In this document: positions 2,879-36,302 of the stretch, in pieces
Position numbering within the stretch: the stretch's first letter is position 1
How the letters are laid out: every line of letters starts with the position of its first letter
Assembly (NCBI GenBank): GCA_050732955.1
Contig: JBOHRY010000269.1
Location: 1-36,302 of the forward strand
Direction of reading: 5' to 3'
Length of the DNA: 36,302 nt
DNA from: Gemmatimonadales bacterium
Lineage (GTDB): Bacteria; Gemmatimonadota; Gemmatimonadetes; Gemmatimonadales; GWC2-71-9
Position numbers and translations under genes: made by a program
Notes under the pieces: model-generated
Told to the model about the DNA's origin: nothing
The model's input: the letters and a program-made list of their open reading frames with translations, nothing else
Database searches by the model: none

Positions 2879-3910
<1,032 letters not shown>

Positions 3911-3917
3911 GGCGGCC

Positions 3918-6895: not shown

Positions 6896-9800
6896 GCGAA
6901 ATCGCCAGCAACAGAGTCGGGCGAGACGACGCGCTTCAGGCCGCGGTCGCGACGATGCGTAGGAAGTGGCGGATGCGTCGCGTGCTGGAGGGCGGTCCGG
7001 CAATACTCGCTGCGGCACTCGCCGCGCTGCTCGTAGGACTTGCACTGCGGAGCGCACTCGGATCGCCAGCCGCAATCATCATGGCGACTCGGGTGGCCGG
7101 ATACGCGGTCCTGATTGTGGTGGCAGCGTGGTGGATAATCCGGCCCGCCCTGCGGCGCGTCGATGACGAACAGATAGCGTTGTACGTCGAGGAGCAGGCG
7201 CCTGAACTGCGCCAGCTCTTCCTGAGCGCTGTCTACGAACTGGGACATCCCGCGGCGCCCGGAGAATCCCCCGCTCTCCGGCAACGGGTGATCCAGCGCG
7301 CCCTCGACGAGTTCGAACGGCTCGAGCAGGGGACTGCGATCGAGCGGCCCCGCACACGCCGGGCACTCGTGCGACTCGGCGCGCTGGCGCTGGCCGGCGC
7401 TCTGCTCGTCGCCCTCGGGCCTGCGGCGGTTCGCGACAGCGCGCGAATCCTCTTCGTGCCGTGGTCCCGCGCCGCGGCGGCCACCGTGCCGAGTCTGTCA
7501 GTATCGCCGGGCAATGCCAGTGTCCCACGCGGCGCGGCGCTCGATGTCGCCGCGCAATTGCGTGCGCTGCCGGATCGTGGTGCCGAGCTTGTGCTGCGCA
7601 CGGACAGTGCTGCGACATGGATCCGCATTCCCATGGTGCACGACTCGACCGGCACTCGATACGTTGCCCGCATCTTCGACATCAACGAAAACACTCACTA
7701 CTACGTCGAGGCAGGAGGGTTTCGCTCGCCCGAATACCAGGTGAGCGTGACCGATCTGCCGACGGTCAAGCAGTTGTCGCTGGAACTGCGGTACCCGGCC
7801 TACACCGGGCTCGCGCCGCAGAAGATCGAGAACGGCGGTGATGTGGCCGCGGTGACCGGCACCACCGCGGCGGTCAACATCGCGGCCACGCTTCCGGTCA
7901 CAGCGGGCTCGCTCCAGTTCGATGACGGAACCGCCTCGCCGCTCGTGCTGGGAAGCGACGGCCGGCTCACCGGATCATTCAAGGTGACTCACGACGGCTT
8001 CTACCGCGTTGACCTGGTCGCCAGCAATGGCACGAAGGTACCGGGCACGGTGCAGCACTCCGTCGAGGCGCTGGTAGACCATCCACCCACGATCCGGATT
8101 GACAAGCCAGGACGCGACACTCGCATCACTTCGGTGGAAGAGGTTCCCGTCTCGATTCGCGCGAATGACGATTACGGCGTGCGCGACGTGCGGCTCCATT
8201 ACAGCGTCAATGGCGGGAAGGATCAGATCGTGGCCCTGAGCGACAGCGCCCGCCGGGGGAGTCTCGACTTCAGCGCGGTGCACACGATGTTCCTGGAGGA
8301 GATGTCGCTGCACCCGGGCGACCTGATTGCGTACCACGCCACCGCGCGCGATGACGCCGGCAACACCGCCTCGAGTGATATCTACTTCATGGAAGTGCGG
8401 CCCTTCGGGCGGGATTATCGCGCCGCGGAGGACGACGGCGGCGGGGGTGGTGGTGGTGGCGGGAACAATCCTGGACAGTTTACCCAGCGCCAGCGTGAAC
8501 TGATCGCCGGAACGTTCAACTGGCAGCGTGACAGTGCGCGAACCGCTGACCGTGATCGTCGCGCCAACGCGGCAACGCTCGCGATTGCGCAGGGAAAACT
8601 GCACGAGGATGTGACTGTCCAGGCAGAGCGGATGGCCGCTCGCGGCGTGTCCGGGGAAGACAGCGGCTTCGTGGTCGTGCAAGCGGAGCTCGACAGCGCC
8701 GGCCAGGCGATGAAGCCGGCCGAGGATGGGCTCGGGCGGCACGCGATGGGTGATGCGATTCCGGCGCAGGAACAGGCGTTGCAGCACCTGCAGGCCGCCG
8801 ACGCGGCGTATCGCGACATCACGGTACGCCGTGGAGGCAGCGGGGGCGGTGGCGGCGGTGGTGGTAGCGGTGCCAACGCGCAGGATCTGGCCGATCTCTT
8901 CGAGCTGCAGACCGACAAGCTCAAGAACCAGTACGAAGCGCCGCGCGCCGAAGCATCCAGCAGCACGCAGCAGGCGCTGGATTCCACCCAGGAAAAACTG
9001 CGGCAGCTCGCCGCACGCCAGCAGGAAGAGAATGAGCGGCAGCAGCGCATGGCCGATGCGCTTCAGCAGCGCATGGGATCGCAATCCGGGGGCCAACAAC
9101 AGGGCGGCGCCGGTCAGCGCGCCGGTCAGTCGGGCGCAGGACAATCCGGCGGAGGACAAAGCGGTCGTTCGGGCGCGAACGGCACGCGCTCGGCGCAGCA
9201 GCTGTCGCGAGCACCGAGTGGTGGTGGGCAGTCGGGAAGCGCACAACGGGACCTGGCGCGACAAGTCGAAGAGCAGGCGCGGCAGCTCGAGCGCCTCTCG
9301 CGAGACCAGAATTCCGCGGAATTGGCCGAAGCGGCGCGGCGGCTGCAGGAAGCCGCCGATGCGATGCATCAGGCCGCCACTGGCGCAACGCAGCAGGGAA
9401 ACACGGCACTCGACCGGTTGCGTCAGGCATCGCAGAGCATCGAGGGCGCCCAGACTGCGTCCGAAGGAGCGGCGATTCAGGGCCTGGCGCGGCAGGCAGC
9501 CAACCTGGGAGAGCGGCAGCGCGAGATCGCGAAGGATGTCGCCGGGCTCCAGACGATGAACCCGGCCGAACAGGACCAGCGCGCACCGGGACTGATGCAG
9601 CGCAAGGATTCGCTGAGCGACGCGGTGCGCCAGCTCGCCGCCGACGCTGAGCGGGTCGCGCGGCAAACGCGCTCTGATCAGCCCAAGCCGGCCGCGGCGG
9701 CGCAAACCGCCGCCAACGATATTCGCGATCGTCGCGTGCTCGAACAGATCGAGGCGTCGAAGCGGATCATGCGCGCGGGCTCGCCGGAGTACTCGCGAAG

Positions 9801-10707
9801 CCTGGAAGGAGTGATCGGCGAAACGCTCGATAGCGTCGCGAGTAGGCTGGCACAGGCGGCGGGAAGTGTCGGCGCGCGTCGCGGAGCGCAGCAGTCGCTG
9901 GCGCTGGATCGCACGCGCGACCTGGTGCGCGATCTCGAGTCGTTGCGTGATCGAACGCTCAGCGATTCGGCAGCCGGAACCGATGCTGCCAACGCGCGCG
10001 GCGGTGGCTCACGCGATGCGCCCGATGGTCGGAGTCAGGCCGGTGGTGCGCGACCCGGGTCAGCGGAATCGCCCCAAACTGATGAGGCCCGATCTGGTCA
10101 GGCTCAGTCGGGATCCCAACCAGGGCAGGGTCAACAAGGTCGGGCTGGCTCGTCGGCTGGTCAGGGCCAGCCGGGGCGCGCGAGCGGGCAGAGTCAGTCC
10201 GGCCGGGGGGCAGCGGGGCAGCCGGGTCAAGGGCAACCGGGACAGGGTCAGCCAGGCGGGGGCCAGGCTGCACAAGGGGGTCAGCAAACCGGCCAAGCCG
10301 GCGGTGCAGGATCGAGAATCGGTAATCAAGTGGCTGGTGGCGGCGCTGGCGGAGTTGATCGCAGCAATGTCGATCCGCGCCAATTCCGAGGTGAAGTGGG
10401 AGCCCGGATTCAATCCGCCGAGCAGCTGCGGCGAGACCTCTCGGCGCAGGGTGTCGATGTGGCGCCGCTCGACCGCGCCATCGGTCAGCTCAAGAGGCTC
10501 ATGGATGCCACCAATCCAGGCCGCACCGACGATCTGCAAGCGGCGATCGTCACCGGGCTCAAGGAGTTTGAGTTCGACGTCTGGCGGAAATTCAACGGTG
10601 ACCCGGCCGGTACGCCTGCGCTGGGGTCAGCGGCGCAGGTGCCGCCACAGTACCGCGCGATGGTGGAGGAATACTTCCGTTCACTAGCGCGGAAGGGACC
10701 GAATTAG
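6892..10707 (+). CDS. Large membrane-anchored low-complexity protein (DUF4175-like terminal member of MoxR/BatA clusters)
   Basis: 1271-aa ORF with an ATGA overlap onto the upstream gene. Three N-terminal hydrophobic segments, then a beta-rich middle region, then a coiled-coil-like Q/A/R/E-rich region containing poly-Gly and Q/G/S/P-rich tracts. The family assignment comes from position and architecture only. Confidence 0.7.
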   Translation: MSEIASNRVGRDDALQAAVATMRRKWRMRRVLEGGPAILAAALAALLVGLALRSALGSPAAIIMATRVAGYAVLIVVAAWWIIRPALRRVDDEQIALYVEEQAPELRQLFLSAVYELGHPAAPGESPALRQRVIQRALDEFERLEQGTAIERPRTRRALVRLGALALAGALLVALGPAAVRDSARILFVPWSRAAAATVPSLSVSPGNASVPRGAALDVAAQLRALPDRGAELVLRTDSAATWIRIPMVHDSTGTRYVARIFDINENTHYYVEAGGFRSPEYQVSVTDLPTVKQLSLELRYPAYTGLAPQKIENGGDVAAVTGTTAAVNIAATLPVTAGSLQFDDGTASPLVLGSDGRLTGSFKVTHDGFYRVDLVASNGTKVPGTVQHSVEALVDHPPTIRIDKPGRDTRITSVEEVPVSIRANDDYGVRDVRLHYSVNGGKDQIVALSDSARRGSLDFSAVHTMFLEEMSLHPGDLIAYHATARDDAGNTASSDIYFMEVRPFGRDYRAAEDDGGGGGGGGGNNPGQFTQRQRELIAGTFNWQRDSARTADRDRRANAATLAIAQGKLHEDVTVQAERMAARGVSGEDSGFVVVQAELDSAGQAMKPAEDGLGRHAMGDAIPAQEQALQHLQAADAAYRDITVRRGGSGGGGGGGGSGANAQDLADLFELQTDKLKNQYEAPRAEASSSTQQALDSTQEKLRQLAARQQEENERQQRMADALQQRMGSQSGGQQQGGAGQRAGQSGAGQSGGGQSGRSGANGTRSAQQLSRAPSGGGQSGSAQRDLARQVEEQARQLERLSRDQNSAELAEAARRLQEAADAMHQAATGATQQGNTALDRLRQASQSIEGAQTASEGAAIQGLARQAANLGERQREIAKDVAGLQTMNPAEQDQRAPGLMQRKDSLSDAVRQLAADAERVARQTRSDQPKPAAAAQTAANDIRDRRVLEQIEASKRIMRAGSPEYSRSLEGVIGETLDSVASRLAQAAGSVGARRGAQQSLALDRTRDLVRDLESLRDRTLSDSAAGTDAANARGGGSRDAPDGRSQAGGARPGSAESPQTDEARSGQAQSGSQPGQGQQGRAGSSAGQGQPGRASGQSQSGRGAAGQPGQGQPGQGQPGGGQAAQGGQQTGQAGGAGSRIGNQVAGGGAGGVDRSNVDPRQFRGEVGARIQSAEQLRRDLSAQGVDVAPLDRAIGQLKRLMDATNPGRTDDLQAAIVTGLKEFEFDVWRKFNGDPAGTPALGSAAQVPPQYRAMVEEYFRSLARKGPN
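8437..8463 (+). repeat. In-frame run of 9 glycine codons (GGN)9
   Basis: ggc ggc ggg ggt ggt ggt ggt ggc ggg, encoding DDGGGGGGGGGNN inside the 6892-10707 CDS. Confidence 0.9.
8833..8871 (+). repeat. Second in-frame Gly-rich codon run (GGSGGGGGGGGSG)
   Basis: gga ggc agc ggg ggc ggt ggc ggc ggt ggt ggt agc ggt, within the same CDS. Confidence 0.9.
9076..9183 (+). repeat. Q/G/S-rich low-complexity coding tract
   Basis: Encodes GSQSGGQQQGGAGQRAGQSGAGQSGGGQSGRSGANG, with reiterated (A/G)GQSG units. Confidence 0.8.
10093..10314 (+). repeat. Q/G/P/S-rich low-complexity coding tract with tandem QPGQG units
   Basis: Encodes SGQAQSGSQPGQGQQGRAGSSAGQGQPGRASGQSQSGRGAAGQPGQGQPGQGQPGGGQAAQGGQQTGQAGGAGS. 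The DNA shows imperfect 15-nt periodicity around 10219-10254. Confidence 0.8.
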
Positions 10708-11845: not shown

Positions 11846-12721
11846 ATGCGGGCTCCATTCACCGAAATCGTCGACTACGCGGGGCTTTTTCCACCCGCGA
11901 CGTGCAGCATGGCCGACGCCGTGCGCCAATACGATGTCTACCGGCGTTCCGAAGATCGGTGGATGCTGGGACGCTTTGTCGTCGCCGCGATCCGGCTGGA
12001 GGAACTGGGTGAGGCGCTGGTGGCCGGTGGAATCGTTCCCGATCCTGGCGATCCGTGGCTGCTCACCGTGGTCATGGGAGCGGTCATCCCGGTCGAGCTC
12101 GAGCGGATCGCGGCGTTCGATGCCCAGTGGAGCGTTCGCGGCGTCGTGGCCGACAGCATCGAGTACCGGGTCGGAAGTGTCGGGCAGGTCACGGTGGTCG
12201 GCGACCAGATTCCGCGCCGATTCCGGCGCTATTTCGAGGTGCCACAGGTCGGGCCGTACGACGCGCTGGTGGCCGCCATCGGGAAGACCGACGCCATGGC
12301 GAAGATTCGCACCGGCGGGATGTCTCCCGAGCTATTTCCCGACGCGAGCGAACTCGCACGCTTTCTCGCCGCGGTCGTCAAGCATCGCGTTCCGTTCAAG
12401 GCGACGGCGGGGTTGCACCATCCCTTCCGCGGTTCGTATCCGATCAGTTACGCTCACGACGCTCCGCGACAGCTGATGTATGGCTTCGTCAACCTGCTTG
12501 TCGCTACCGCCGAACTCCGGCGCGGCGGTAAACGTGCCACGGCACAAGCGATTCTGGAGGAGAGCCGGCGGAACGCGTTTGCCTGGCACGACAAGGGGAT
12601 CGACTGGATGGATGAGCAGTACACCGAGGCCGAATTGGCGGCGGCGCACCAGCAACTGTTCGTCGGGTTCGGCTGCTGCTCTTTCCGGGAGCCGGTCGAC
12701 GAACTGAGCCTTGTCGGATGA
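11846..12721 (+). CDS. Hypothetical protein of unknown function (soluble, probably an enzyme)
   Basis: 291-aa ORF with high GC3 and a good RBS. Its stop overlaps the fahA start (ATGA at 12718-12721). No TM segments. I do not recognise the family. Notable motifs are AMAKIRTGG and PFKATAGLHHPFRG. Confidence 0.75.
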   Translation: MRAPFTEIVDYAGLFPPATCSMADAVRQYDVYRRSEDRWMLGRFVVAAIRLEELGEALVAGGIVPDPGDPWLLTVVMGAVIPVELERIAAFDAQWSVRGVVADSIEYRVGSVGQVTVVGDQIPRRFRRYFEVPQVGPYDALVAAIGKTDAMAKIRTGGMSPELFPDASELARFLAAVVKHRVPFKATAGLHHPFRGSYPISYAHDAPRQLMYGFVNLLVATAELRRGGKRATAQAILEESRRNAFAWHDKGIDWMDEQYTEAELAAAHQQLFVGFGCCSFREPVDELSLVG

Positions 12722-27759: not shown

Positions 27760-28249
27760 GGCGAGCCGGCCGTTCTGGGCGGTGATGACGTTCACCGTCC
27801 TGCTCGACCGGGTGACCAAGGTCATCGCCGAGCGGACGCTGGGCGACAGCGGCGTACCGCTCATCGGCAACGCGGTGCAATTCCGGCTGGTGCACAATCA
27901 GGGCGCGGCCTTCGGCCTCGAACTGGGAATCTGGCAGCGCTGGATCTTCATCGTCATCGCGCTGGTGGCGATCGTCTGGCTGTATCGCGCCGCGAGGCAC
28001 GCGCCCGCCTCCGACCGGCTGCGGCAGCTTGCCGTGGCGTTCGTTGCGGGCGGTGCCGCCGGCAACCTGGTCGACCGGCTGCTCTCGGCGCGCGGCGTGG
28101 TGGATTTCATCGACATCGGCGCCGGCACGTTGCGCTGGCCGACCTTCAATGTCGCCGACATTGCCGTGACGTGCGGTGCCGTCGCACTGGCCTTCTCACT
28201 CTGGCGCGAGGATGCGCGCCGCGTTCCCGTTCCCTCCTCACCTGCCTGA
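27743..28249 (+). CDS. lspA: Lipoprotein signal peptidase (signal peptidase II)
   Basis: DRVTK, FRLVHNQGAAFGL, GGAAGNLVDRL, VVDFIDIG and PTFNVADIAV. The start was set at ATG 27743, not track start 27458. Confidence 0.9.
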   Translation: MPSADEASRPFWAVMTFTVLLDRVTKVIAERTLGDSGVPLIGNAVQFRLVHNQGAAFGLELGIWQRWIFIVIALVAIVWLYRAARHAPASDRLRQLAVAFVAGGAAGNLVDRLLSARGVVDFIDIGAGTLRWPTFNVADIAVTCGAVALAFSLWREDARRVPVPSSPA

Positions 28250-29264
28250 GTCGCCCGCGCCGTCGCTGACGTTCTGCGTCACCGTCGCGCTGACCGAGCG
28301 CATCGATCGCTTCCTTGCCGATCAACTGGGAATGTCCCGCACGCAATCGGCGCGGCTGATTGCTGCGGGATGCGTCGCGATCGACGGCATCTTGGTGCGC
28401 GCGTCACGCGTGCTCGTGCGGGGTGAAGTGGTCGCCATCCAGTTGCCGGAGCAGGAACCCCCGCGTCAGATCACGCCGTCCGATATCGCACTCGACGTGG
28501 TGTACGAAGACGATGCCCTGGCGGTCATCGACAAGCCGGCCGGGTTGGTGGTGCATCCGGCCCCGGGTCACTGGGGCGACACCCTCGTCAACGCGTTGGT
28601 CGCCCGCGGGACGACGCTGTCAGGCGGCGCCGAGGGTCGCCCCGGAATCGTTCACCGGCTCGACCGCGACACCTCCGGCCTGATCATCGTCGCCAAGACG
28701 GACCTGGCGCACCGGCGACTGGCCGGGATGATCGCGGCCCGGCGCGTGGCGAGGGTCTATGCCGCGCTGGTCTGGGGTCACCTCGACCAGAGTCCGCTCA
28801 CGATCGATGCGCCTATCGCCCGCGATCTCCGAGACCGCAAGCGGATGGCGATACTTCCCGGGGGCCGCCGGGCGCAGACCGACGCCTTTGTCATCGCCCG
28901 GCTCGGCTCCGTGGACCTGCTCCGGCTCGAATTGCTGACCGGGAGAACCCATCAGATCCGGGTGCACCTGCAATCGGTCGGTCACCCGGTGGTCGGGGAC
29001 GCCGTCTACGCGGCAGGCGGGGCTCAGCGGATCGGCGGGCCCGCCCGACTCGAGGCCAGGCGGCTGGAATCCCTGGCTCCCAGACAGGCGCTCCATGCCG
29101 CGCTTCTGGCGTTCCGCCACCCGATCAGCGGATCGCCCCTGCGCTTCCGTTCGCCATGGCCAGCCGATCTCTGGCCGCTTCTCGAGGCGGCGGCGGGAGC
29201 TGGGCACTTGAGCACCCGGGAGGAGGCCTTGGCGGCGATGGGGTTCTTCCGTAACGATGACTGA
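28212..29264 (+). CDS. rluD: RluA/RluD-family 23S rRNA pseudouridine synthase
   Basis: S4-like RIDRFLADQLGMSRTQSARLIAAGCVAIDG. Catalytic motif GIVHRLDRDTSGLIIVAKT, then GRTHQIRVHL and LHA. The start at ATG 28212 is tentative because it overlaps the lspA 3' end. Confidence 0.88.
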   Translation: MRAAFPFPPHLPESPAPSLTFCVTVALTERIDRFLADQLGMSRTQSARLIAAGCVAIDGILVRASRVLVRGEVVAIQLPEQEPPRQITPSDIALDVVYEDDALAVIDKPAGLVVHPAPGHWGDTLVNALVARGTTLSGGAEGRPGIVHRLDRDTSGLIIVAKTDLAHRRLAGMIAARRVARVYAALVWGHLDQSPLTIDAPIARDLRDRKRMAILPGGRRAQTDAFVIARLGSVDLLRLELLTGRTHQIRVHLQSVGHPVVGDAVYAAGGAQRIGGPARLEARRLESLAPRQALHAALLAFRHPISGSPLRFRSPWPADLWPLLEAAAGAGHLSTREEALAAMGFFRNDD

Positions 29265-29619
29265 CGGGGCCAAGGCAGTCGAGGGACTGGTGGTGCGCGT
29301 GGCCGGGGTCCAGCGCTACCTGCCAATTGCAAGCGTCATAGAGGTATTGCGAGAAGTGAATATCATCAGGGTCCCCGGCGCTGTTGCCGCGGTCCTGGGG
29401 ATGGTGAATCATCGGGGTCGGGTCATCGCCGTGGCCGATGCGCGCCAGGCGCTAGAACTCATCGGCGATCCGACGACCGGCCGCGACATCGTGGTGGTGC
29501 AGTGGCGGGAGCGGCGATTCGGCGTGGCAGTCGACGCGGTCGTCGAGCTGATGGGTGAGGCGCGCACGGGGCTTGCAGAGATCGACCTGGATCGCATCGC
29601 GGCGGCTGTTTTCGCCTGA
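29257..29619 (+). CDS. cheW: CheW-like coupling protein (short, 120 aa)
   Basis: The pattern matches a CheW domain: LVVRVAGVQRYLPIASVIEVLREVNIIRVPGAVAAVLGMVNHRGRVIAVADARQAL...VVVQWRERRFGVAVDAVVEL. The ATG sits 8 nt inside the rluD 3' end. Confidence 0.8.
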   Translation: MTDGAKAVEGLVVRVAGVQRYLPIASVIEVLREVNIIRVPGAVAAVLGMVNHRGRVIAVADARQALELIGDPTTGRDIVVVQWRERRFGVAVDAVVELMGEARTGLAEIDLDRIAAAVFA

Positions 29620-29629
29620 GGTCTCGAAC

Positions 29630-29635
29630 GGAGGA
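29630..29635 (+). promoter_or_regulatory. Shine-Dalgarno GGAGGA, 4 nt upstream of the cheY GTG
   Basis: cGGAGGAtgctGTG. Confidence 0.5.
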
Positions 29636-29639
29636 TGCT

Positions 29640-30005
29640 GTGGCGCACCGGATCCTGATTTGCGATGACGCGATCTTCATGCGGACGATGATCGCCGACA
29701 TTCTGACCGGCGCCGGCTACGAAATCGCCGGCGAAGCGGAGAGTGGGTTGCAGGCGGTCGAGCGGTACAAGACGCTGAAGCCCGATCTCGTCACCATGGA
29801 TATCGTGATGCCGGACATGGGCGGCATCGACGCGGTCAAGGCGATCGTCGCGGTGGATGCCAAGGCCCGCATCCTGATGTGCAGCGCCATGGGTCAGCAG
29901 TCGCTGGTGGTCGAAGCGATCCAGGCGGGCGCCAAGGACTTCGTGGTCAAACCGTTTCAGCCGGCGCGGGTTCTCGAAGCCGTGCAACGCGTCCTGGGTG
30001 GATGA
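29640..30005 (+). CDS. cheY: CheY-like single-domain response regulator
   Basis: ILICDDAIFMR (acidic pair), DLVTMDIVMPDMGG (phospho-acceptor Asp), MCSAMG and KDFVVKPF (conserved Lys). Confidence 0.9.
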   Translation: MAHRILICDDAIFMRTMIADILTGAGYEIAGEAESGLQAVERYKTLKPDLVTMDIVMPDMGGIDAVKAIVAVDAKARILMCSAMGQQSLVVEAIQAGAKDFVVKPFQPARVLEAVQRVLGG

Positions 30006-31504
30006 CCGACGCCCGGCGCGCGCGTTACGTCGCCCTCTACTCGTCTGAGGCGCGATCGCTGCTGAGCACCGCGCGGCGCGCCCTGGAGCGATGGCAGGAG
30101 CGTCCCGCCGATTCCGAGGCCGGTGAGGAAATCTTCCGGGCGCTGCACACGGTGAAGGGAATGGCGGCGTCGCTCAACTTCACCGCGACCGCCGAGCTGG
30201 TTCACGCCACCGAGACGACGTTGAGCGACGTGCGGCGCGGTGGCGTCCGCGCCACGTCGCAGTGGCTCCGGGAGTTCGAGTCATCGCTCGACGCCATCGC
30301 GCTCTCGTCCGAGGCGGCGATCGTGGGCGCCGGGGGCACCGCTGCGACCGAGCCGGCGCGGCGAACCGGTCCGCGCATCGTTCGCGTCGATCTCGATCGT
30401 CTCGACGCGCTGCTCAGCGATCTCGGCGCGCTGGTGCTGGCGCGACAGGAGCTCGAACGCCGAGCGGAATCCGATCCGTTTTCGCCGATCGCGCACGCCG
30501 CGTGGCAGATGGCGGGCCGGCTGGACGCTCTGCAATCACGGATCCTCGACGTTCGGCTGGCGCCGCTCTCCGAGATCCTGGAGCGCATGCCGCCGCTGGT
30601 GCGGGATCTCGCGCGCCAGCTCCGGAAGGAGGTCACGATCGAAGTAACCGGCGAGTCGCTCGAAGTCGATCGTGCCATCCTTGATCAACTCGCCGATCCG
30701 CTGCTGCACCTGCTGCGCAACGCGGTGGATCACGGGCTCGAATCGCCGGAGGCGCGGCGCGCCGCAGGCAAGCGCAGCGCCGGCAAGATCGCGGTGTCCG
30801 CACGGCAGGATGGCGACGCCGTGGTGCTCGAAATCGCTGACGACGGCCGCGGGGTGGATCGCGAGCTGGTCGCCGAGCGCGCGCGAGCCATGGGGATCCT
30901 GGCGCCGGGCGCCGTGTTGAGTGACGATGGCCTGCTCGCGGTGCTGGAGCGGCCCGGGTTCAGCACGGCCGATCGCGTCACCGAGGTGTCGGGTCGCGGG
31001 GTCGGGCTCGATGTAGTGGTCGCGCGAATGCGCGAAGTCGGCGCCGCGCTCACGTTGACGACCGTCGTGGGTCATGGAACCGTCTTCAGCATTCGCCTGC
31101 CGACGAGGCTCGGTATCGTGCGGGCGCTGGTGACCGGGATTGGCGACGAGCGGTACGTCATGCCGATGACGCATGTGGTGGAACTGGTTGCCTGGCAATC
31201 CGACCTGGTGTCGCAGCGCGACGGTCGCGCGGTCCTGATGGTTCGCGACGAGGCGCTGCCGATCGTCGACCTGCGCCGGCTGCTGCAGTATCGCGGTGCC
31301 GAGCCGCCGGCACGGAGGCCGGCGGTCATCGTCGAGGCGAATGGCCAGCGAGTGGCACTCCTGGCGGATGCCGTGCTGGGTCAGGTCGACGCCGTCGTGC
31401 AGGCAATCGACCGGCCGAACGGGATGGCGCGATGGCTGACCGGTGCGACCGTTCTGGACGACGGCCGGCCGGCGTTGTTGATGGATCTGGCGAGCGTGGT
31501 GTAG
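30002..31504 (+). CDS. cheA: Chemotaxis histidine kinase CheA (P1-P3-P4-P5 architecture, apparently no P2)
   Basis: Hpt H-box FRALHTVKGMAASL; dimerisation segment IVRVDLDRLDALLSDLGALV; N-box LLHLLRNAVDHGLE; G1 DDGRGVD; G2 SGRGVGLDVV; C-terminal CheW-like domain. The start was set at ATG 30002 (ATGA overlap with the cheY stop). Confidence 0.9.
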   Translation: MTDARRARYVALYSSEARSLLSTARRALERWQERPADSEAGEEIFRALHTVKGMAASLNFTATAELVHATETTLSDVRRGGVRATSQWLREFESSLDAIALSSEAAIVGAGGTAATEPARRTGPRIVRVDLDRLDALLSDLGALVLARQELERRAESDPFSPIAHAAWQMAGRLDALQSRILDVRLAPLSEILERMPPLVRDLARQLRKEVTIEVTGESLEVDRAILDQLADPLLHLLRNAVDHGLESPEARRAAGKRSAGKIAVSARQDGDAVVLEIADDGRGVDRELVAERARAMGILAPGAVLSDDGLLAVLERPGFSTADRVTEVSGRGVGLDVVVARMREVGAALTLTTVVGHGTVFSIRLPTRLGIVRALVTGIGDERYVMPMTHVVELVAWQSDLVSQRDGRAVLMVRDEALPIVDLRRLLQYRGAEPPARRPAVIVEANGQRVALLADAVLGQVDAVVQAIDRPNGMARWLTGATVLDDGRPALLMDLASVV

Positions 31505-31515
31505 GGATCTCAACT

Positions 31516-31520
31516 GGAGG
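31516..31520 (+). promoter_or_regulatory. Shine-Dalgarno GGAGG, 4 nt upstream of the cheC ATG
   Basis: ctGGAGGcacgATG. Confidence 0.5.
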
Positions 31521-31524
31521 CACG

Positions 31525-32145
31525 ATGACCGCAGCGAACGACATTGACACCCTGCGCCACGATGGATTGCGCGAGGTCGCGACGATCGGTGCCGGACACG
31601 CGGCGACGGCGCTGTCGCAGCTCACCAATCGACGCATCATGATCTCGGTGCCGCACGTGCAGCGGATCCACTTCGGCGAGGTGCCCGACCTGGTCTCCGC
31701 GTTCGGTGATCACGTGGCGGTGGTAGCGATGCGGATGCTTGGCGATCTCACGGGGCGGGCGTTGCTGGTCTTCGAAGAATACGATGCGACGCGCCTTTGC
31801 GACCTGATCCTTCGCCGCCCCGCGGGTCCTCCGCGGGCCCTGGGCGAGCTGGAACAATCAGGCCTCAAGGAGGTCGGCAACATCGTGTGCTCGGCGTATC
31901 TCACCGCGCTGAGCAATTTCATGGGGATGATGTTGCTGCCGTCGGTCCCCGCGCTGACGATCGGTCCGACCGATCAGGCAATCGCATCCACGGTGGATCC
32001 TGCCGAAGCGCCAGGCGACCTGGTGTTCTGCGTGGACACGGCGTTTCGCGCCGAGGGCGCGGAGACACCGCTGACGGGAGCGTTCCTGCTGATGCCCGAC
32101 CAGGCATCGGTGCGCGCGATTCTCGAGGCGATCCGGCTCGACTGA
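31525..32145 (+). CDS. cheC: CheC-family CheY-P phosphatase
   Basis: 206 aa with two internal repeats. The second carries an intact E-x2-N-x22-P motif (LKEVGNIVCSAYLTALSNFMGMMLLPSVP). The first reads E-x2-T-x22-P (LREVATIGAGHAATALSQLTNRRIMISVP). Confidence 0.8.
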   Translation: MTAANDIDTLRHDGLREVATIGAGHAATALSQLTNRRIMISVPHVQRIHFGEVPDLVSAFGDHVAVVAMRMLGDLTGRALLVFEEYDATRLCDLILRRPAGPPRALGELEQSGLKEVGNIVCSAYLTALSNFMGMMLLPSVPALTIGPTDQAIASTVDPAEAPGDLVFCVDTAFRAEGAETPLTGAFLLMPDQASVRAILEAIRLD

Positions 32146-32146
32146 C

Positions 32147-33274
32147 ATGGGGTCCGTCGCCTCGGCGGTCGCGGCGCTCCGCCAACGACTCGGCCGCGCG
32201 GACGCCGCAGCGCTCAGCAACTTCGCCTGGTTCGCCGCGCGTCGCGGTGAGCACGACGCGGCGCTGGAAGCCGCACGGGCCGCGGTGGCGCTTCCCAATG
32301 CTCCGCGCGCCGCGTGGCGATCGCTCGAGCGGCTCGCGGCCGGACGTGTCGACGGAATGCTGCTTACCGCGGGGGGCATCGCGGCGGCGCCCTCGCCACG
32401 ACACGGCAATCCGCTCGCGACGGCGCACGTGGCGCACCGCGAACGGGAATTCGCGGTGGCCGAAGCCTGCTATCGCGCCGCGCTGGATGATGCCGCGCTC
32501 GCGCCGGCCGCGCTCAACGGCATGGGCGTGTTGCACGAGCAGCGGCGTGAACGCGCCGCTGCCGACGAAGCGTGGCGCGGTGCGATCGCTGCCGGCAGCA
32601 TCGCCGCGGTGCACAACCAGGCGCTGGCGCTCCTGCGGCGCGGATTGCCGCACCGCACGCGCGCCGTGCTGACGCCGTGGCTGACGCGCCCGGAGCCGGC
32701 AGCCTCGCTGCAATTCCTGGCCGGATACGCCGCACTCGTGGATGAGGATCCCGCGGCCGCGCTTCCGCTCCTCACCAAGTCGGTAGCGCTCGATCCGGAA
32801 TCGGCGCGGGCGCAATTCAGTCTCGGGCTCGCCTGCGAGCGGCTCGGCATGCACGCCGACGCGCTGGTCGCGATTCGTCGGGCGCTGCTCCTCTCGCCGT
32901 GGTACCAGCCCCAAGCCTGGCTGGTCGAGTCGGGACCGGATGGCCCGGCGGTGGAACTCCCGATGGATCCGGGAGAAGGCGGCCCGGCGACACAGACCGA
33001 CGACGTGCTCCTCTCGCTGGGTCGCTCGCTCCTGCAGACTGCTCATCTCGGCGAGGCGCTCGCGGTCTTCGACCAGGTGCTTGCGGGTCATCCCTCGCAG
33101 ACCGCCGCGCTCTTTCATCGCGGTGTGGTACTCGCCAAGCTCCGGCGATACGACGAGGCACTCGAAGACTGGGAGAGCGTCGGGCGCGTCGATCCCGGCA
33201 GCGAGATCGGCGACGCCAGCCGCCGCCACGCGCGGTCGGCGCGTCAACTCGCGTCCCTCTTCGCCGGGGCGTAG
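32147..33274 (+). CDS. TPR-repeat protein
   Basis: 375 aa with repeated Ala/Leu-rich TPR-like units (for example AEACYRAALDDAALAPAALNGMGVLHEQ, AQFSLGLACERLGMHADALVAIRRALLLSP, ALFHRGVVLAKLRRYDEALEDWESVGRVDP). The ATG is 1 nt after the cheC stop. Confidence 0.75.
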   Translation: MGSVASAVAALRQRLGRADAAALSNFAWFAARRGEHDAALEAARAAVALPNAPRAAWRSLERLAAGRVDGMLLTAGGIAAAPSPRHGNPLATAHVAHREREFAVAEACYRAALDDAALAPAALNGMGVLHEQRRERAAADEAWRGAIAAGSIAAVHNQALALLRRGLPHRTRAVLTPWLTRPEPAASLQFLAGYAALVDEDPAAALPLLTKSVALDPESARAQFSLGLACERLGMHADALVAIRRALLLSPWYQPQAWLVESGPDGPAVELPMDPGEGGPATQTDDVLLSLGRSLLQTAHLGEALAVFDQVLAGHPSQTAALFHRGVVLAKLRRYDEALEDWESVGRVDPGSEIGDASRRHARSARQLASLFAGA

Positions 33275-33276
33275 CG

Positions 33277-34203
33277 ATGCACGGACCGTTGAGCGAAATC
33301 GGCCTGATCGAAGTGTTGCAGCTGCTCGAGCGTGGCCGACGGAGCGGCGCGCTGCACGTCACCGGCGGCGTACCGGAGCGCACCGCGTCCGTGCACCTCC
33401 GCGACGGCGGGATCGTCGCCGTCGACCCCGATGCCGGCGACGATGCGCTGCGTTCGGCTCTGGTCGGCCGATATCTCGCCAGCGAAAGCGAATCGCAGAA
33501 CGATTCCGGGTTGCTCGCCCGCGAGGATGCCACAGCGCTTCGCGAGGAACTCGCCTTGCACGCGCTCGGGACGATGCTGCATTGGCGGGCGGGGCGGTTC
33601 GACTTTCGGTCCAGCAACATTTCCGGTGGTCCGCTGTCGATCTCGCCGGATGCGCTGGTGTTTCAGCTGGTGGAGTCGGAAACACGCCGAGTCGAGCTTT
33701 CCGACGCCACCGTCGGATTCCGCGTCATCCCTGCGTTCGCTGCACCGGAAATCGTGACGCGGGGGGATCCGCCGGCGCTGACACCGCGGGATTGGCGGGT
33801 GCTCGACGTGGTGGATGGCACCCGCGACATCGCGGGCATTGCCGCGGTGCTGGGCGAACCGCTCGAGGACATCGCGGCCCGGGTCCAGTGGCTGGAGGCC
33901 GCCGCTATACTTGAACTCAACCGGCCCGGTCCCGATCTGACCGTCGTGGTGCGTTCGGCGATCGAGGCCGGCCGCTACAACGAGGCCGCCCAGTTGCTTC
34001 AGGTTCGCCTGGCGTCGTATCCGGCGGACGCCGACGCATGGCGTGTGCTCGGTCTGGCCGAGGTCGGAGCGGGTCGCTTCGAGCGCGCGATCGAGGCCTG
34101 GCAAAGCTGGCGTGCCAGCGATCCCGAGCACGCGGGCGATGCGGTGGAACTGATGCAGGCGGCTCGTACCATGGTGGAGGCTCTCCGCGACTCCCGTGAC
34201 TGA
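33277..34203 (+). CDS. PATAN/DUF4388-domain protein with a C-terminal TPR-like region
   Basis: The N-terminus GPLSEIGLIEVLQLLERGRRSGALHVTGG....SVHLRDGGIVAV matches the DUF4388 opening (G.L....l.dvlQll......G.L.v.......i.f.dG.iv.A). The C-terminal part reads EAGRYNEAAQLLQVRLASYPADADAWRVLGLAEVGAGRFERAIEAWQ. The start was set at ATG 33277, 2 nt after the upstream stop; track start 32899 lies inside the previous gene. Confidence 0.72.
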   Translation: MHGPLSEIGLIEVLQLLERGRRSGALHVTGGVPERTASVHLRDGGIVAVDPDAGDDALRSALVGRYLASESESQNDSGLLAREDATALREELALHALGTMLHWRAGRFDFRSSNISGGPLSISPDALVFQLVESETRRVELSDATVGFRVIPAFAAPEIVTRGDPPALTPRDWRVLDVVDGTRDIAGIAAVLGEPLEDIAARVQWLEAAAILELNRPGPDLTVVVRSAIEAGRYNEAAQLLQVRLASYPADADAWRVLGLAEVGAGRFERAIEAWQSWRASDPEHAGDAVELMQAARTMVEALRDSRD

Positions 34204-34951
34204 CATCTCCATTCCCGCGGGATCCCCGTCACAGGGTCTGGCCTTTCTCGAACTTGGTGAGCGGTTGCGGCAGCGCGGACAGTTCGCCGCTGCGGCGACG
34301 GTGGCGCTCGCCGGACTCGCCCACTACCCGGCGGTCGCCGACGCCCATGACCTGCTGGCCCGCATTCGCGTCGATCAGGGCGACGACCCTGCGGCGATTG
34401 CGGCATGGCACGCCGCGCTGGAGTGCGATCCCCTGCACATCGGGGCGCGGAAAGGCCTCGCCTTTGTCGCATTCCGCGCCCGGGATTTCGTCACCGCCGA
34501 ACGACACCTCGAACTGGCGGCAATGCACGCGCCGCACGACACCAGCGTGCTCGCGGCGCTGGATCGGGTGCGTTCCGTCCAGCCGAATGCCGTGGCCGAA
34601 CCGGTGCCGCGGCTCACCGATCCCGGTAGTGGTTTGCTGCTGTACGACCTGCAAGGAATGCGTCTCGCCGGGGGACTCACCGATTCAGGCGACGAAGCGC
34701 TGGCGGACGCAGCCGCCGCCGAAGGCGCCGGTCTCACCCGGGAGACCGAACGCGCAGCGCGATTGCTCGGTCTGGGCCGCCCGCGCCACCTCCTGGTAGA
34801 AACGGCGCAAGCGCGAATCGCCATGGTCCCGGTGAGGTCCGACGCGGCGCTGCTGCTGCACCGCGGCGCCGCGATTCCGATCGGGCGCCTTCTGGCGCTG
34901 GTCAATCGCGCGGCACAAGCGGCGACGCAGTGGCTCGAGTCGATGCGATGA
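34196..34951 (+). CDS. TPR-like N-terminal domain fused to a C-terminal Roadblock/LC7-like domain
   Basis: N-terminal half: ELGERLRQRGQFAAAATVALAGLAHYPAVADAHDLLARI..GDDPAAIAAWHAALECDP. C-terminal half, Roadblock-like: GLLLYDLQGMRLAGGL....AAAEGAGLTRETERAARLLGLGRPRHLLVETAQARIAMVPVRSDAALLL. The GTG start is 8 nt inside the upstream 3' end. Confidence 0.65.
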   Translation: MTDISIPAGSPSQGLAFLELGERLRQRGQFAAAATVALAGLAHYPAVADAHDLLARIRVDQGDDPAAIAAWHAALECDPLHIGARKGLAFVAFRARDFVTAERHLELAAMHAPHDTSVLAALDRVRSVQPNAVAEPVPRLTDPGSGLLLYDLQGMRLAGGLTDSGDEALADAAAAEGAGLTRETERAARLLGLGRPRHLLVETAQARIAMVPVRSDAALLLHRGAAIPIGRLLALVNRAAQAATQWLESMR

Positions 34952-35301
34952 ATCGCAACGCCTGGCAGGAGGCGCTCCGCGAGCTCACCGGCGTTGGCGG
35001 TGTGCTCGGCGCGCTGGTCATCTCGGCGGACGATGGGCTCGTGGTCGAGGAGGCCGCCATCGACGATCTCGCCACCGCCGACGTCGCGGCTCTGTCGGCC
35101 GCGCTGGTTGCGCGCGCCGCACGTTGCACCGGAGCGATGCGAAGCGGACCGCCATCCAGTCTGCACCTCGTCGCCGAATCGGGCACACTCCTGGCCGTCG
35201 CCGGACCGCCCCCGCTCTGGCTCGTGGCCGTCGCGCGCCCGGATGCCGAAGTCGGCCGGTTACGGTTGCTGCTCCGCGATTTTGCCGGCGGACTCGCCTG
35301 A
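34948..35301 (+). CDS. Roadblock/LC7 domain protein (MglB/MglC-like)
   Basis: LRELTGVGGVLGALVISADDGLVVEEAA.......VAALSAALVARA......M..G...SLHLVAESGTLLAVAG.....LVAVARPDAEVGRLRLLLRDF is a classic Roadblock pattern. The ATG 34948 forms an ATGA overlap with the upstream stop; the alternative is GTG 34930. Confidence 0.8.
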   Translation: MNRNAWQEALRELTGVGGVLGALVISADDGLVVEEAAIDDLATADVAALSAALVARAARCTGAMRSGPPSSLHLVAESGTLLAVAGPPPLWLVAVARPDAEVGRLRLLLRDFAGGLA

Positions 35302-35771
35302 TGCGGGTGATCGAGCCGTGGGTGGCGGCACCGCTCACCGAGCTGCTCGGTGAATCAAGTGCGCGACTTGCCTTGATCATGACCAGCTCCGGACAGGTCA
35401 TCGGCCAGCATGGATTCACGCGTTCGCTGGACGTCATGGCGGCGGCCTCGCTGGGCGCGGGGATCCTCGCCACCACCGGTGAATTGGCGCGCACGGTCGG
35501 AGCGCCATCGGGGTTTGGTGCCGTGGTGCACCAGGGTGAGCGGCAGGGTGTGTGGCTCGCCGGTTTTGACACCCCGCGCGGGCGCTGGATCGCGCTGGTG
35601 GTGTTCGGACCCGAATCCTCGATCGGTCTGGTGCGACTCTTTTTCGCGCGATTCGCCGAACAGGTTGCCGCGGCCGCACCGCCACTCGCGCCGATGCGTG
35701 AGGTGCTGGCTGAAGGCTTCGAGCGCGAACTGGACCAGTCATTGCGCGCGCTCTTCGGAGCGAACACCTGA
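35301..35771 (+). CDS. Roadblock/LC7-like protein with a C-terminal helical extension (MglB-like, directly coupled to the GTPase gene)
   Basis: LLGESSARLALIMTSSGQVIGQHGF....DVMAAASLGAGILATTGELARTVG......VVHQGERQGVWLAGFDTPRGRWIALVVFGPESSIGLVRLF, followed by a tail of about 40 aa. The start was set at ATG 35301 (TGATG overlap); track start 35124 lies inside the previous gene. Its stop overlaps the GTPase ATG (TGATG at 35769-35773). Confidence 0.65.
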   Translation: MRVIEPWVAAPLTELLGESSARLALIMTSSGQVIGQHGFTRSLDVMAAASLGAGILATTGELARTVGAPSGFGAVVHQGERQGVWLAGFDTPRGRWIALVVFGPESSIGLVRLFFARFAEQVAAAAPPLAPMREVLAEGFERELDQSLRALFGANT

Positions 35772-36302
35772 TGGCGCGTCTCAACCCCGATCGTCGGGAA
35801 CTTGGAGCGTCGTTGGTGGTCTACGGCGCGCCCAAGTCCGGCAAGACTGCGATTCTTCATTGCATCCGGGAGCGTGTGGCCCCGGAACGGCGCGGCGGAT
35901 TCGAACCGTTTGGCAGCGACGCCGGCGTCGCACCTCTGCTCGACTGGATTCCGCTCGATCTGGGCGCGATCGGCGGCTGGCAGGTACGCGTCGACCTCTA
36001 CGCGATTCCTGATCAGCGCCACGCCGACGCGACCCGCCGGATGATTCTCTCCGATGCCGACGGAGTCCTCTTCATCGGCGACGCGCAGGCGGCGCGGCTG
36101 AGCGACAATCTCGGCGCCGTGGCCAGCCTGCGCGAGAATCTTGAGGCGCTCGACGGGCGCCGTCCCGATCTCCCGACGGTGTACGCCTACTCCAAGTCCG
36201 ATCTTCCGGGCGACTTGCTGCTCGGTCGCGACGCGCTCAATCAGGCGCTCAATCCGCGCGGATTCCCGGATTTCGCCTGCAGCGCCTTGCGCGGTGAAGG
36301 GG
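35771..36302 (+). CDS. MglA-like Ras-superfamily small GTPase, 3'-partial (runs off the window); absent from the supplied ORF track
   Basis: My own translation from ATG 35771: MARLNPDRRELGASLVVYGAPKSGKTAILHCIRERVAPERRGGFEPFGSDAGVAPLLDWIPLDLGAIGGWQVRVDLYAIPDQRHADATRRMILSDADGVLFIGDAQAARLSDNLGAVASLRENLEALDGRRPDLPTVYAYSKSDLPGDLLLGRDALNQALNPRGFPDFACSALRGEG. There is no stop before the window end. It has a P-loop GAPKSGKT and appears to align without gaps to my recollection of Myxococcus MglA (IVYYGPGLCGKTT ... [26 protein letters not shown] ... VDGVVFVADSQ ... YNKRDL). Confidence 0.8.
   Translation, partial: MARLNPDRRELGASLVVYGAPKSGKTAILHCIRERVAPERRGGFEPFGSDAGVAPLLDWIPLDLGAIGGWQVRVDLYAIPDQRHADATRRMILSDADGVLFIGDAQAARLSDNLGAVASLRENLEALDGRRPDLPTVYAYSKSDLPGDLLLGRDALNQALNPRGFPDFACSALRGEG

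Follow-up and report, generated by a model that had tools for sequence, protein, structure and literature searches.

What kind of system is encoded where the genes of a chemosensory pathway and the gene of an MglA-family small GTPase run into one another in a single row? We have examined this question for a stretch of 36,302 nucleotides from a Gemmatimonadales bacterium (contig JBOHRY010000269.1, positions 1 to 36,302; hereafter the window), the 3' end of which carries such a row. We observed that the ten genes in the window are the first of a cytoplasmic signalling array that is specific to its lineage and found in soil-dwelling Gemmatimonadales. The array comprises at least 13 genes and extends from cheW to the third of its genes for tetratricopeptide repeat (TPR) proteins. 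The components of this array are a receptor-less chemosensory phosphorelay, adaptors built from TPR and PATAN domains, three Roadblock proteins, one of which is MglB-like, and the MglA-family GTPase.

All ten genes lie on the + strand. The chemosensory part consists of a CheW-like protein of 120 amino acids (aa) (29257..29619; Pfam CheW, 58.6 bits), the single-domain response regulator CheY (29640..30005; Response_reg, 100.9 bits), a 500-aa CheA histidine kinase (30002..31504; Hpt, H-kinase_dim, HATPase_c and CheW) and a CheC-type phosphatase of phosphorylated CheY (CheY-P) (31525..32145; CheC, 58.6 bits). It is followed by a soluble TPR protein of 375 aa that lacks transmembrane (TM) segments (32147..33274; TPR_16, TPR_2, TPR_1 and others), a PATAN (DUF4388/PatA_N)-TPR protein of 308 aa (33277..34203; DUF4388 and TPR), a 251-aa TPR-Roadblock fusion (34196..34951; TPR and Robl_LC7), a stand-alone Roadblock/LC7 protein of 117 aa (34948..35301; Robl_LC7, 29.3 bits), the 156-aa MglB-like Roadblock protein (35301..35771) and the MglA-family GTPase (35771..36302), of which 177 of about 201 codons are present before the window ends. 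The products from CheW through the third TPR protein, which is encoded beyond the window, are all predicted to be soluble and without TM segments.

The sequence-only reading of this DNA had described ten genes with ten tight junctions, starting at cheW and ending with the GTPase, and had taken them for one transcription and translation unit. All ten assignments were upheld, eight by Pfam matches at or above threshold and the other two by matches to MglB and MglA structures, and the ten junctions proved exact when read from the sequence: cheW/cheY, +20; cheY/cheA, -4 (ATGA); cheA/cheC, +20; cheC/TPR, +1; TPR/PATAN-TPR, +2; PATAN-TPR/TPR-Roadblock, -8; TPR-Roadblock/Roadblock, -4; and -1 for both Roadblock/MglB-like and MglB-like/GTPase, the remaining one (-8), which opens the earlier list, being that between the end of the rluD gene at 29264, a gene not named there, and the start of cheW. 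The tight packing thus stands, but the limits of the row do not. The 8-nt overlap with rluD means that eleven genes rather than ten are packed in this way and that the row is translationally coupled to rluD upstream, and in every orthologous locus the row does not end with the GTPase but continues 7 nt beyond it. One transcription unit is plausible. A promoter and terminator scan, which is uninformative for this lineage, found no terminator-like site inside the array, no promoter-like site in the window, and a single terminator-like site within ileS.

Among the chemosensory proteins, CheY is the most constrained gene product of the row (55% invariant columns) and CheW the least conserved (11%). 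CheY has all of the phosphorylation-site residues (D9, D10, D54, S82 and K104) and is 65% identical to Thermotoga maritima CheY (PDB 1tmy, E 3e-50). CheW covers positions 1-90 of the 138 in the Pfam profile and aligns to approximately residues 26-104 of solved CheW proteins, whose canonical length is 151-165 aa; it thus corresponds to about the first two-thirds of a canonical CheW, with some 45 C-terminal residues missing. The CheA domains found by Pfam, Hpt (9-99), H-kinase_dim (125-159), HATPase_c (232-368) and CheW (376-499), correspond to P1, P3, P4 and P5, and His49 lies in the LHTVKG motif of P1. We found no P2 and no receiver domain in this protein, and P1 and P3 are separated by only about 25 residues; the P3-P5 portion aligns end to end with solved CheA structures (E 8e-80), and orthologues range from 496 to 505 aa. 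Of the two active-site motifs in CheC, the second (S-x3-E-x2-N) is unaltered and does not vary, and the first carries T for N; the protein scores 135.6 bits against the NCBIfam model CheC_Thtogales, which is below the cut-off, and is Thermotogales-like. The earlier statement that no methyl-accepting chemotaxis protein (MCP), CheR or CheB is encoded in the window was borne out, and it extends further: neither these nor CheD were found in the 29 kb of the window that lie upstream of the row or in the 10 kb downstream in three orthologous loci (L001, L002 and L053), and flagellar genes, cheB, cheR and cheD are absent within about 40 kb of the locus.

The calls of TPR, PATAN and Roadblock domains, including that of a Roadblock with a C-terminal tail, likewise held in Pfam searches and in comparisons of profiles with the PDB. 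The PATAN domain is clear (PF14332, 54.9 bits against a cut-off of 25), and it is fused to TPR and not to a receiver (REC) domain, so that the protein is not a PatA-type response regulator; also, the copy in the window has no MshEN-type cyclic di-GMP (c-di-GMP) motif (no match to NF053729). The Robl_LC7 match of the TPR-Roadblock fusion is borderline (22.9 bits against a cut-off of 23), and the orthologues in loci L002 and L054 pass that cut-off. For the 117-aa Roadblock protein, the family profile (A3) matched PDB entries 7f8m (2.8e-10) and CvnB5 (3leq, 8.6e-6) but no MglB, and this protein is, as judged by its profile, of a generic or CvnB-like type rather than MglB-like.

The product of the ninth gene behaves differently. 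Its window copy has no Pfam match and scores 28 bits, below the cut-off, with the NCBIfam MglB model, and yet a profile built from 17 orthologues (A2) matched only MglB chains in the PDB, with E values from 1e-12 to 1e-6 (Myxococcus xanthus 6izw_B and 6h5b_B, 1e-12; Thermus thermophilus 1j3w, 3e-9). The alignment with T. thermophilus MglB extends to residue 149, into the C-terminal tail, and the C-terminus ends in the invariant motif LAEGFERELDxSLRALFG. A homologous Roadblock domain, a C-terminal extension and a stop codon that overlaps the start of the GTPase gene, features by which MglB proteins are recognized, are all present. Across loci this protein is 72-89% identical, which is above the 43-81% of the GTPase. 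It and the 117-aa Roadblock protein were not regarded as close paralogues (hhalign probability 5%, E 0.008), and each was tied to Roadblock structures separately.

The tenth gene product belongs to the MglA family by homology, as had been proposed. The truncated window copy gives only weak Pfam matches, and we therefore used a full-length relative (P0001, from locus L055) that is 91% identical to it. At E<0.01, this protein matched only M. xanthus and T. thermophilus MglA in the PDB (E 3e-29 to 3e-25), the best alignment being gapless over residues 4-106. In a Foldseek search with its AlphaFold model (pLDDT 84, pTM 0.83; lowest confidence exactly at residues 48-55), the top 14 matches were all MglA (TM 0.84/0.88), the best of them being M. 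xanthus MglA bound to GTP-gamma-S, and Ras scored about 0.66. Public names for the orthologues are "SRP receptor beta subunit", "MglA" and "GTPase domain-containing protein"; we rejected the SRP receptor beta or Arf-like identity that the JGI names suggest, as the PDB matches are to MglA only.

The motifs of this GTPase nevertheless depart from those of MglA, and an MglA-type polarity switch timed by GTP hydrolysis should not be assumed, since group-defining catalytic residues are missing. In the window protein, the P-loop is GAPKSGKT (G19-T26) and G4 is S141-K-S-D144, with S at the first position; V53, A54, A78 and D81 stand in place of MglA R53, T54, T78 and G81, and Q82 is kept (AIPDQ). Among 85 homologues, G19, G24, K142 and D144 are invariant, K25 is present in 83, and G4 reads [NTS]KxD. 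In the same set, position 53 is never R (V, A, G or another residue occurs), T54 is found once, Ala78 is present in 80, Gly81 remains in 6, the others having D, A, L or some other residue, and Gln82 is kept in 60 and lost in 25; G3 variants of the orthologues include AVPAQ, GVPAE, AVPGH, AIPLL and AVSSR, among others. MglA group 1 is marked by an intrinsic arginine beside the G2 threonine (RT) together with TVPGQ, and groups 2-5 by TT together with GTPGQ (Wuichet and Sogaard-Andersen 2014, PMC4316618). The window protein has neither the RT of group 1 in G2 nor the TVPGQ or GTPGQ of groups 1-5 in G3, and, by these motifs, fits none of the five published groups. This degeneracy is narrowly distributed: among the 150 nearest representatives of 50%-identity clusters, drawn from 1.84 billion proteins, RT is present in 137 and TVPGQ in 125, and only about 12 have degenerate motifs, these being the dozen closest to the query. 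The nearest relatives outside the degenerate clade (P0232, P0233 and many of P0231-P0370) are mostly canonical MglA domains at the N-termini of proteins of 300-970 aa; a small group of relatives keeps RT but has AIPYI or AVPYI as G3.

Because the arginine finger, the switch-I threonine, the G3 glycine and often the catalytic glutamine have been lost and the binding motifs kept, we infer that the GTPase binds guanine nucleotide and probably hydrolyses it poorly, its hydrolysis and switch machinery having been relaxed. MglB exerts its GTPase-activating protein (GAP) effect through Arg53 and Gln82 of MglA itself (PMC4316618). As Arg53 is absent here, the MglB-like partner is unlikely to be a classical GAP.

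No record matched the MglB-like protein exactly, which might have extended the contig past the window, and genes beyond it were read from orthologous contigs: L001 (74% GTPase identity), L002 (~50%), L053, L054 and L055, the last from the closest relative. In these loci, which share the genes upstream, six genes follow that of the GTPase and are succeeded by rsmH-ftsL-ftsI, which are genes of the dcw cluster. The first of the six, 7 nt after the GTPase gene, in L055 as elsewhere, encodes a tandem AAA+ protein of 646-707 aa with a DnaA-domain-III half and an Hda-like half. The N-terminal half scores 409 bits with TIGR00362 (cut-off, 344) and matches Bacillus subtilis DnaA (8bv3, E 6e-50), with a Foldseek TM of 0.92, an rmsd of 1.7 A and 40% identity in the structural alignment to domain III. 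The motifs GLGKTHL, VDDAQ, SDRPP, RLxRRF and RELxGAL are invariant, as are Walker A and B, box VII and sensor II. The C-terminal half, 32% identical to the N-terminal half, is Hda-like (TIGR03420, 162 bits, below the cut-off); a helical linker joins the two, and a disordered but conserved tail ends in E-E-W-x. DnaA domains I/II and IV were not found (there was no match to Bac_DnaA_C), nor was a clamp-binding motif identified. By its domain composition, this protein is not a DnaA orthologue, despite the JGI name "chromosomal replication initiator protein"; its other public name is "DnaA/Hda family protein".

The AAA+ gene is overlapped by 1 nt by that of a second PATAN-TPR protein (540 aa), in which an insertion in the PATAN domain contains two MshEN-type motifs. 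The MshEN motif is a tandem 24-residue repeat, RLGxx(L/V/I)(L/V/I)xxG(L/V/I)(L/V/I)xxxxLxxxLxxQ (PMC5013675). The orthologues in L001 and L002 score 49.6 and 43 bits with NF053729, above the cut-off of 38, and the motifs can be seen in every orthologue of the alignment; this protein is a probable c-di-GMP sensor. The gene of the third TPR protein overlaps it by 4 nt. Three envelope genes come next, encoding a peptidase MA protein, a 63-aa protein with two TM segments and, after ~150 nt, a TPR protein with a signal peptide (TPR4), whose gene ends ~180 nt upstream of rsmH; these three proteins may lie outside the cytoplasmic system. In L001 (14976-18112) and its orthologues, the Peptidase_MA_2 protein begins with a signal-like stretch and has a TM segment at its C-terminus, the 63-aa protein is conserved, and no mraZ was seen between these genes and rsmH.

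A pattern scan, made on one genome for each species, yielded 50 loci, of which 31 were from Gemmatimonadota, and we added two further metagenome contigs, for a total of 33 loci from this phylum. Carriers of the array include complete or near-complete genomes of 3.3 Mb (OY970263.1) and 3.2 Mb (CAWCMH010000001.1). The order from lspA to rsmH is kept, with near-identical spacing, in all 31 as far as each contig allows, and both of the added contigs have the same order, so that the array is invariant in order across the 33. Separation of the che genes from the Roadblock and GTPase genes, which would have pointed to chance adjacency, was not seen in relatives: both sets are present in each locus that extends far enough. 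Genes for CheA are present in 30 of the 31 loci from the genome scan, the exception being cut by a contig end. The junctions themselves are largely conserved, as is seen for rluD/cheW (-8 in 19/25), cheY/cheA (-4 in 22/28), cheC/TPR (+1 in 19/30), PATAN-TPR/TPR-Roadblock (-8 in 30/31), TPR-Roadblock/Roadblock (-4 in 28/31), Roadblock/MglB-like (-1 in 28/31), AAA+/second PATAN-TPR (-1 in 23/26) and second PATAN-TPR/third TPR (-4 in 25/26). Only three gaps are sizeable, namely cheA/cheC (13-193 nt) and the two, already mentioned, on either side of TPR4. Identity across loci is 68-92% for CheC and 44-77% for the 117-aa Roadblock protein. The conserved order shows an old and stable arrangement but does not in itself establish functional coupling, which is likely rather than proven. 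When CheA and the AAA+ protein were used as queries, the matches listed were all Gemmatimonadales orthologues, and homologues of the proteins of the window are nearly all from metagenome-assembled genomes of Gemmatimonadales or Gemmatimonadota.

Two loci are of separate interest. In L013, on a complete chromosome (OY970263.1:535865-556461), the array is present but CheA (40% identity), CheY (58%) and the TPR protein (41%) are far more diverged from the window copies than in other loci, which is not so for CheC (81%) or the MglB-like protein (76%); the open reading frame called there for the second PATAN-TPR protein is also shorter (400 aa). Outside Gemmatimonadota, the MglA relatives in the genome scan were all canonical (DRTL/TVPGQ/NKRD), and none had the partner genes. 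One of them, in Marinobacter zhanjiangensis KCTC 22280 (L038:7218-14055; NZ_BMXV01000001.1), lies in a + strand row of genes for a histidine kinase, REC-HD_5, REC, MglA, a histidine kinase and a REC-MshEN-T2SSE (PilB-like) ATPase, with no MglB in sight; here, too, a small GTPase is linked to parts of two-component and of c-di-GMP and pilus-ATPase systems.

How, then, might the parts of the array work together? With some hesitation, and at slightly less than an even chance, we favour the reading that the Che phosphorylation cycle acts by way of CheY-P on the PATAN-TPR and Roadblock proteins and thus on the MglA-like protein. CheA would phosphorylate CheY and CheC would reset it; CheY-P would act on the separately encoded PATAN-TPR protein, the pair being a split equivalent of the PATAN-REC, or PatA-type, regulators, and also on the Roadblock proteins. 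As a result, the MglA-like protein would change its partners or its place in the cell, in the same design as that by which Frz acts on MglB/MglC/RomR-MglA. The GTPase would be a nucleotide-dependent adaptor rather than a self-timing switch, with timing supplied by the CheA/CheC phosphorylation cycle, and the MglB-like protein would be a platform or an exchange or anchoring partner and not a classical GAP. The downstream AAA+ protein, the PATAN-TPR protein with c-di-GMP motifs and the TPR proteins would likely constitute an effector and second-messenger arm, in which, speculatively, the E-E-W C-terminus of the AAA+ protein might dock on a TPR domain. Candidate targets would be a polar machine, such as type IV pili, or a process of the cell cycle or of division.

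We propose this route on the following grounds. In che-like systems, PATAN serves PATAN-REC regulators as their output domain, and it binds PilB/PilC (bioRxiv 10.1101/2021.06.11.447907); Frz acts on the polarity module, in which the Roadblock proteins MglB and MglC form a complex with RomR (PMC10329633); and PATAN-MglA gene neighbourhoods have already been noted, including that of Gemmatimonas aurantiaca T-27 GAU_1409, given as "PATAN>MglA>-PATAN>" (Wuichet table S2; PMC4316618). In the same strain, GAU_1115 is given as "MglB>MglA>".

Several observations weigh against this proposal. Synteny does not single out the coupling of che and mgl genes, because in every locus the housekeeping genes on either side, ileS-dksA-lspA-rluD and rsmH-ftsL-ftsI, show the same collinearity as the array itself. 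Rate covariation across 15 species (partial Mantel) gave r = 0.3-0.74 between CheA and the array, which is not clearly above the 0.28-0.58 of housekeeping genes; outside Gemmatimonadota, the genome scan turned up no independent case of the array; and the cheA-cheC spacer could hold an internal promoter. The loss of GTPase activity is a prediction from motifs. The resemblance of CheY and CheC to their Thermotoga counterparts, of which the CheY is of the flagellar type, would be equally in keeping with an output aimed at a motor. Whether information passes from Che to the GTPase or from the GTPase to CheA cannot be read from the sequence. Some of these same facts would suit an arrangement in which cheWYAC is an ordinary, flagellar chemotaxis core and the TPR, PATAN, Roadblock, GTPase and AAA+ genes are separate from it and adjacent through inherited gene order, the flanking genes keeping the same positions in every locus, rluD overlapping cheW by 8 nt, CheY and CheC being Thermotoga-like, the gap between cheA and cheC being variable, and the covariation test failing to discriminate. 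We consider this rather unlikely, and several features of the locus speak against it: cheC and the TPR gene are separated by a single nucleotide in most loci and later genes overlap; the genes expected around a flagellar core are missing from the neighbourhood; CheA has no P2 and CheW is truncated; associations of PATAN with REC and che genes are established elsewhere; and the degenerate GTPase clade was never seen without che genes.

The lack of any MCP, CheR or CheB at the locus can also be taken as a sign that signals run in reverse, from a complex of the GTPase, Roadblock, TPR and PATAN proteins, with c-di-GMP being detected by the downstream PATAN-TPR protein, that would replace MCPs as the input to the P2-less CheA, with CheY-P acting on a motor component such as FliM or a pilus ATPase. 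A truncated and little-constrained CheW looks unsuited to classical receptor arrays, the strong constraint on CheY and its closeness to the T. maritima protein would be expected of such an output, and the MshEN-type motif of the downstream PATAN-TPR protein is above the NCBIfam cut-off; furthermore, in the actinobacterial conservon, too, a kinase is encoded alongside Roadblock and MglA-like proteins without a response regulator (PMC4316618). Genomes often have their MCP genes at dispersed sites, however, so that a lack of them at the locus is weak evidence. We know of no precedent for a CheA under the control of a small GTPase, the Myxococcus precedent runs the opposite way, PATAN is documented as an output and not an input domain, and we regard reversed flow, too, as improbable. 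The AAA+ protein raises a further question, which is whether the array positions or times a division or replication process, with this protein acting on DnaA or the replisome and with a tie to the dcw genes. Its N-terminal half is a near-canonical DnaA domain III with invariant ATPase motifs, its second half is Hda-like, and only the three envelope genes separate the array from rsmH-ftsL-ftsI; budding, moreover, has reportedly been seen in Gemmatimonas. But the protein is without DnaA domain I or IV and an identified clamp-binding motif, its adjacency to dcw genes may be inherited synteny, and a literature search found no link between MglA-type proteins and replication; on balance a polarity or cell-cycle device of this kind seems to us very doubtful. 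Hardly more probable is a broader scheme in which the receptor-less Che kinase, the c-di-GMP-binding PATAN protein and a hydrolysis-dead MglA/MglB-type pair would form one soluble complex with the tandem DnaA-/Hda-like ATPase as its effector, coupling environmental or second-messenger signals to replication, polarity or division; the array does sit a few genes upstream of rsmH-ftsL-ftsI, and, if true, this output would be of a kind known neither for Che pathways nor for MglA-type proteins.

Returning to the proposed flow from Che to the GTPase, the closest working likeness of the array is the Frz system of M. xanthus with MglA/MglB/MglC(/RomR-RomX/RomY). Both have a CheA-type kinase pathway, an MglA-family protein, an MglB-type gene directly upstream of it and further Roadblock paralogues; in both, all components are cytoplasmic and TPR proteins may be partners. 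However, frz and mgl are separate loci in Myxococcus (PMC4316618), whereas the array is one contiguous row of overlapping genes. The array locus is without the FrzCD-type receptor, the CheA-CheY fusion (FrzE), FrzZ and RomR/RomX of Myxococcus, and it has CheC, PATAN proteins and the DnaA-like AAA+ protein in addition. Also, its GTPase lacks R53, T54, T78 and G81, so that the cycle of MglB GAP action by which the Myxococcus oscillator is driven is not to be assumed.

Other known systems share smaller portions of the design. The actinobacterial conservon (CvnA, CvnB, CvnC and CvnD, the last an MglA of group 2) likewise joins a histidine kinase, a Roadblock protein and an MglA-family GTPase in a conserved unit, and the array's 117-aa Roadblock profile matches CvnB5, as noted above. 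In contrast, the conservon kinase is a membrane protein with HAMP and that of the array is a soluble CheA with CheW, CheY and CheC; the array has no match to DUF742/CvnC, and its GTPase, with [NTS]KxD as G4, differs from group 2, which has the motifs NxFD and DAR. Cyanobacterial Tax/Pix systems with PatA-type (PATAN-REC) regulators resemble the array in combining a che-type kinase pathway with PATAN, which is a protein-binding output module whose alpha-clip insertion is related to MshEN repeats (bioRxiv 10.1101/2021.06.11.447907). They differ from it in that PATAN in the array is fused to TPR and not to a receiver, CheY is separate, no MCP or photoreceptor is encoded in the row, and Roadblock and GTPase genes are added. 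With the CheA-CheW-CheY-CheC core of Thermotoga and Bacillus, the array shares its CheY and Thermotogales-like CheC and a CheA that aligns fully over P3-P5, but not the P2 domain or a full-length CheW, and CheD, CheB, CheR, MCP and flagellar genes are not found nearby. The AAA+ protein, finally, resembles DnaA in having a domain III module with all of the ATPase motifs, and Hda in its C-terminal module, and differs from DnaA in its tandem modules, in the lack of domains I/II and IV, and in being encoded in a signalling array and not beside dnaN.

Searches of the literature (Gemmatimonas with MglA, che with Roadblock, and DnaA-like with small GTPase) found no description of the array, in agreement with the earlier statement that it had not been characterised in this lineage; its only trace there is two lines in the supplementary table S2 of Wuichet. 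The array is thus an uncharacterised variation on the Che-to-MglA/MglB theme. In Myxococcus, the link from Frz to MglA/MglB had to be assembled from scattered genes; in the array the corresponding parts stand in one conserved row, and their wiring is testable by reconstitution. A GTPase without catalytic residues beside a well-conserved MglB-like protein offers a natural experiment on an MglA/Roadblock pair without a GTPase cycle, to which eukaryotic Roadblock platforms, and pseudo-GTPases, may offer a parallel. Further leads are the tandem DnaA-domain-III protein, which has no described function, and a PATAN domain that probably binds c-di-GMP. Current annotation of both the GTPase as "SRP receptor beta subunit" and the AAA+ protein as "chromosomal replication initiator protein" is misleading.

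The remainder of the window, which is 64-71% G+C with all of its genes on the + strand, contains ordinary genes 5' of the row: a MoxR/DUF58/BatA-VWA/DUF4175 set, a sigma-70 family factor, metabolic genes, tilS, hpt, ftsH and folP, together with genes for a TMEM260-like glycosyltransferase, yggS, ileS, a DksA/TraR zinc-finger protein, lspA and rluD. We rejected the possibility that a defence system is encoded here, the PADLOC matches being to generic AAA+ proteins only; the fixed position of the array among housekeeping genes is a further argument against a mobile island. The context gene rluD (28176..29264, + strand; Pfam PseudoU_synth_2 and S4) encodes an RluD-type pseudouridine synthase, and its start is uncertain: GTG at 28176 and ATG at 28212 are candidates, with an overlap of up to 74 nt with lspA, but the alignment of orthologues starts only at 28272, and there is no ATG, GTG or TTG at the expected position, 28269. 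Between the genes for the sigma-70 family factor and a fumarylacetoacetase, a 291-aa open reading frame on the + strand (11846-12721) has no Pfam match. The set at 2879-10707, with a MoxR AAA+ (AAA_3), DUF58, BatA/VWA and DUF4175 in a row, resembles the Bat "aerotolerance" operon. Its DUF4175 protein is 1271 aa in length, with long Gly- and Gln-rich stretches of low complexity, which account for a spike in AT skew (+0.21) at 8001-10000.

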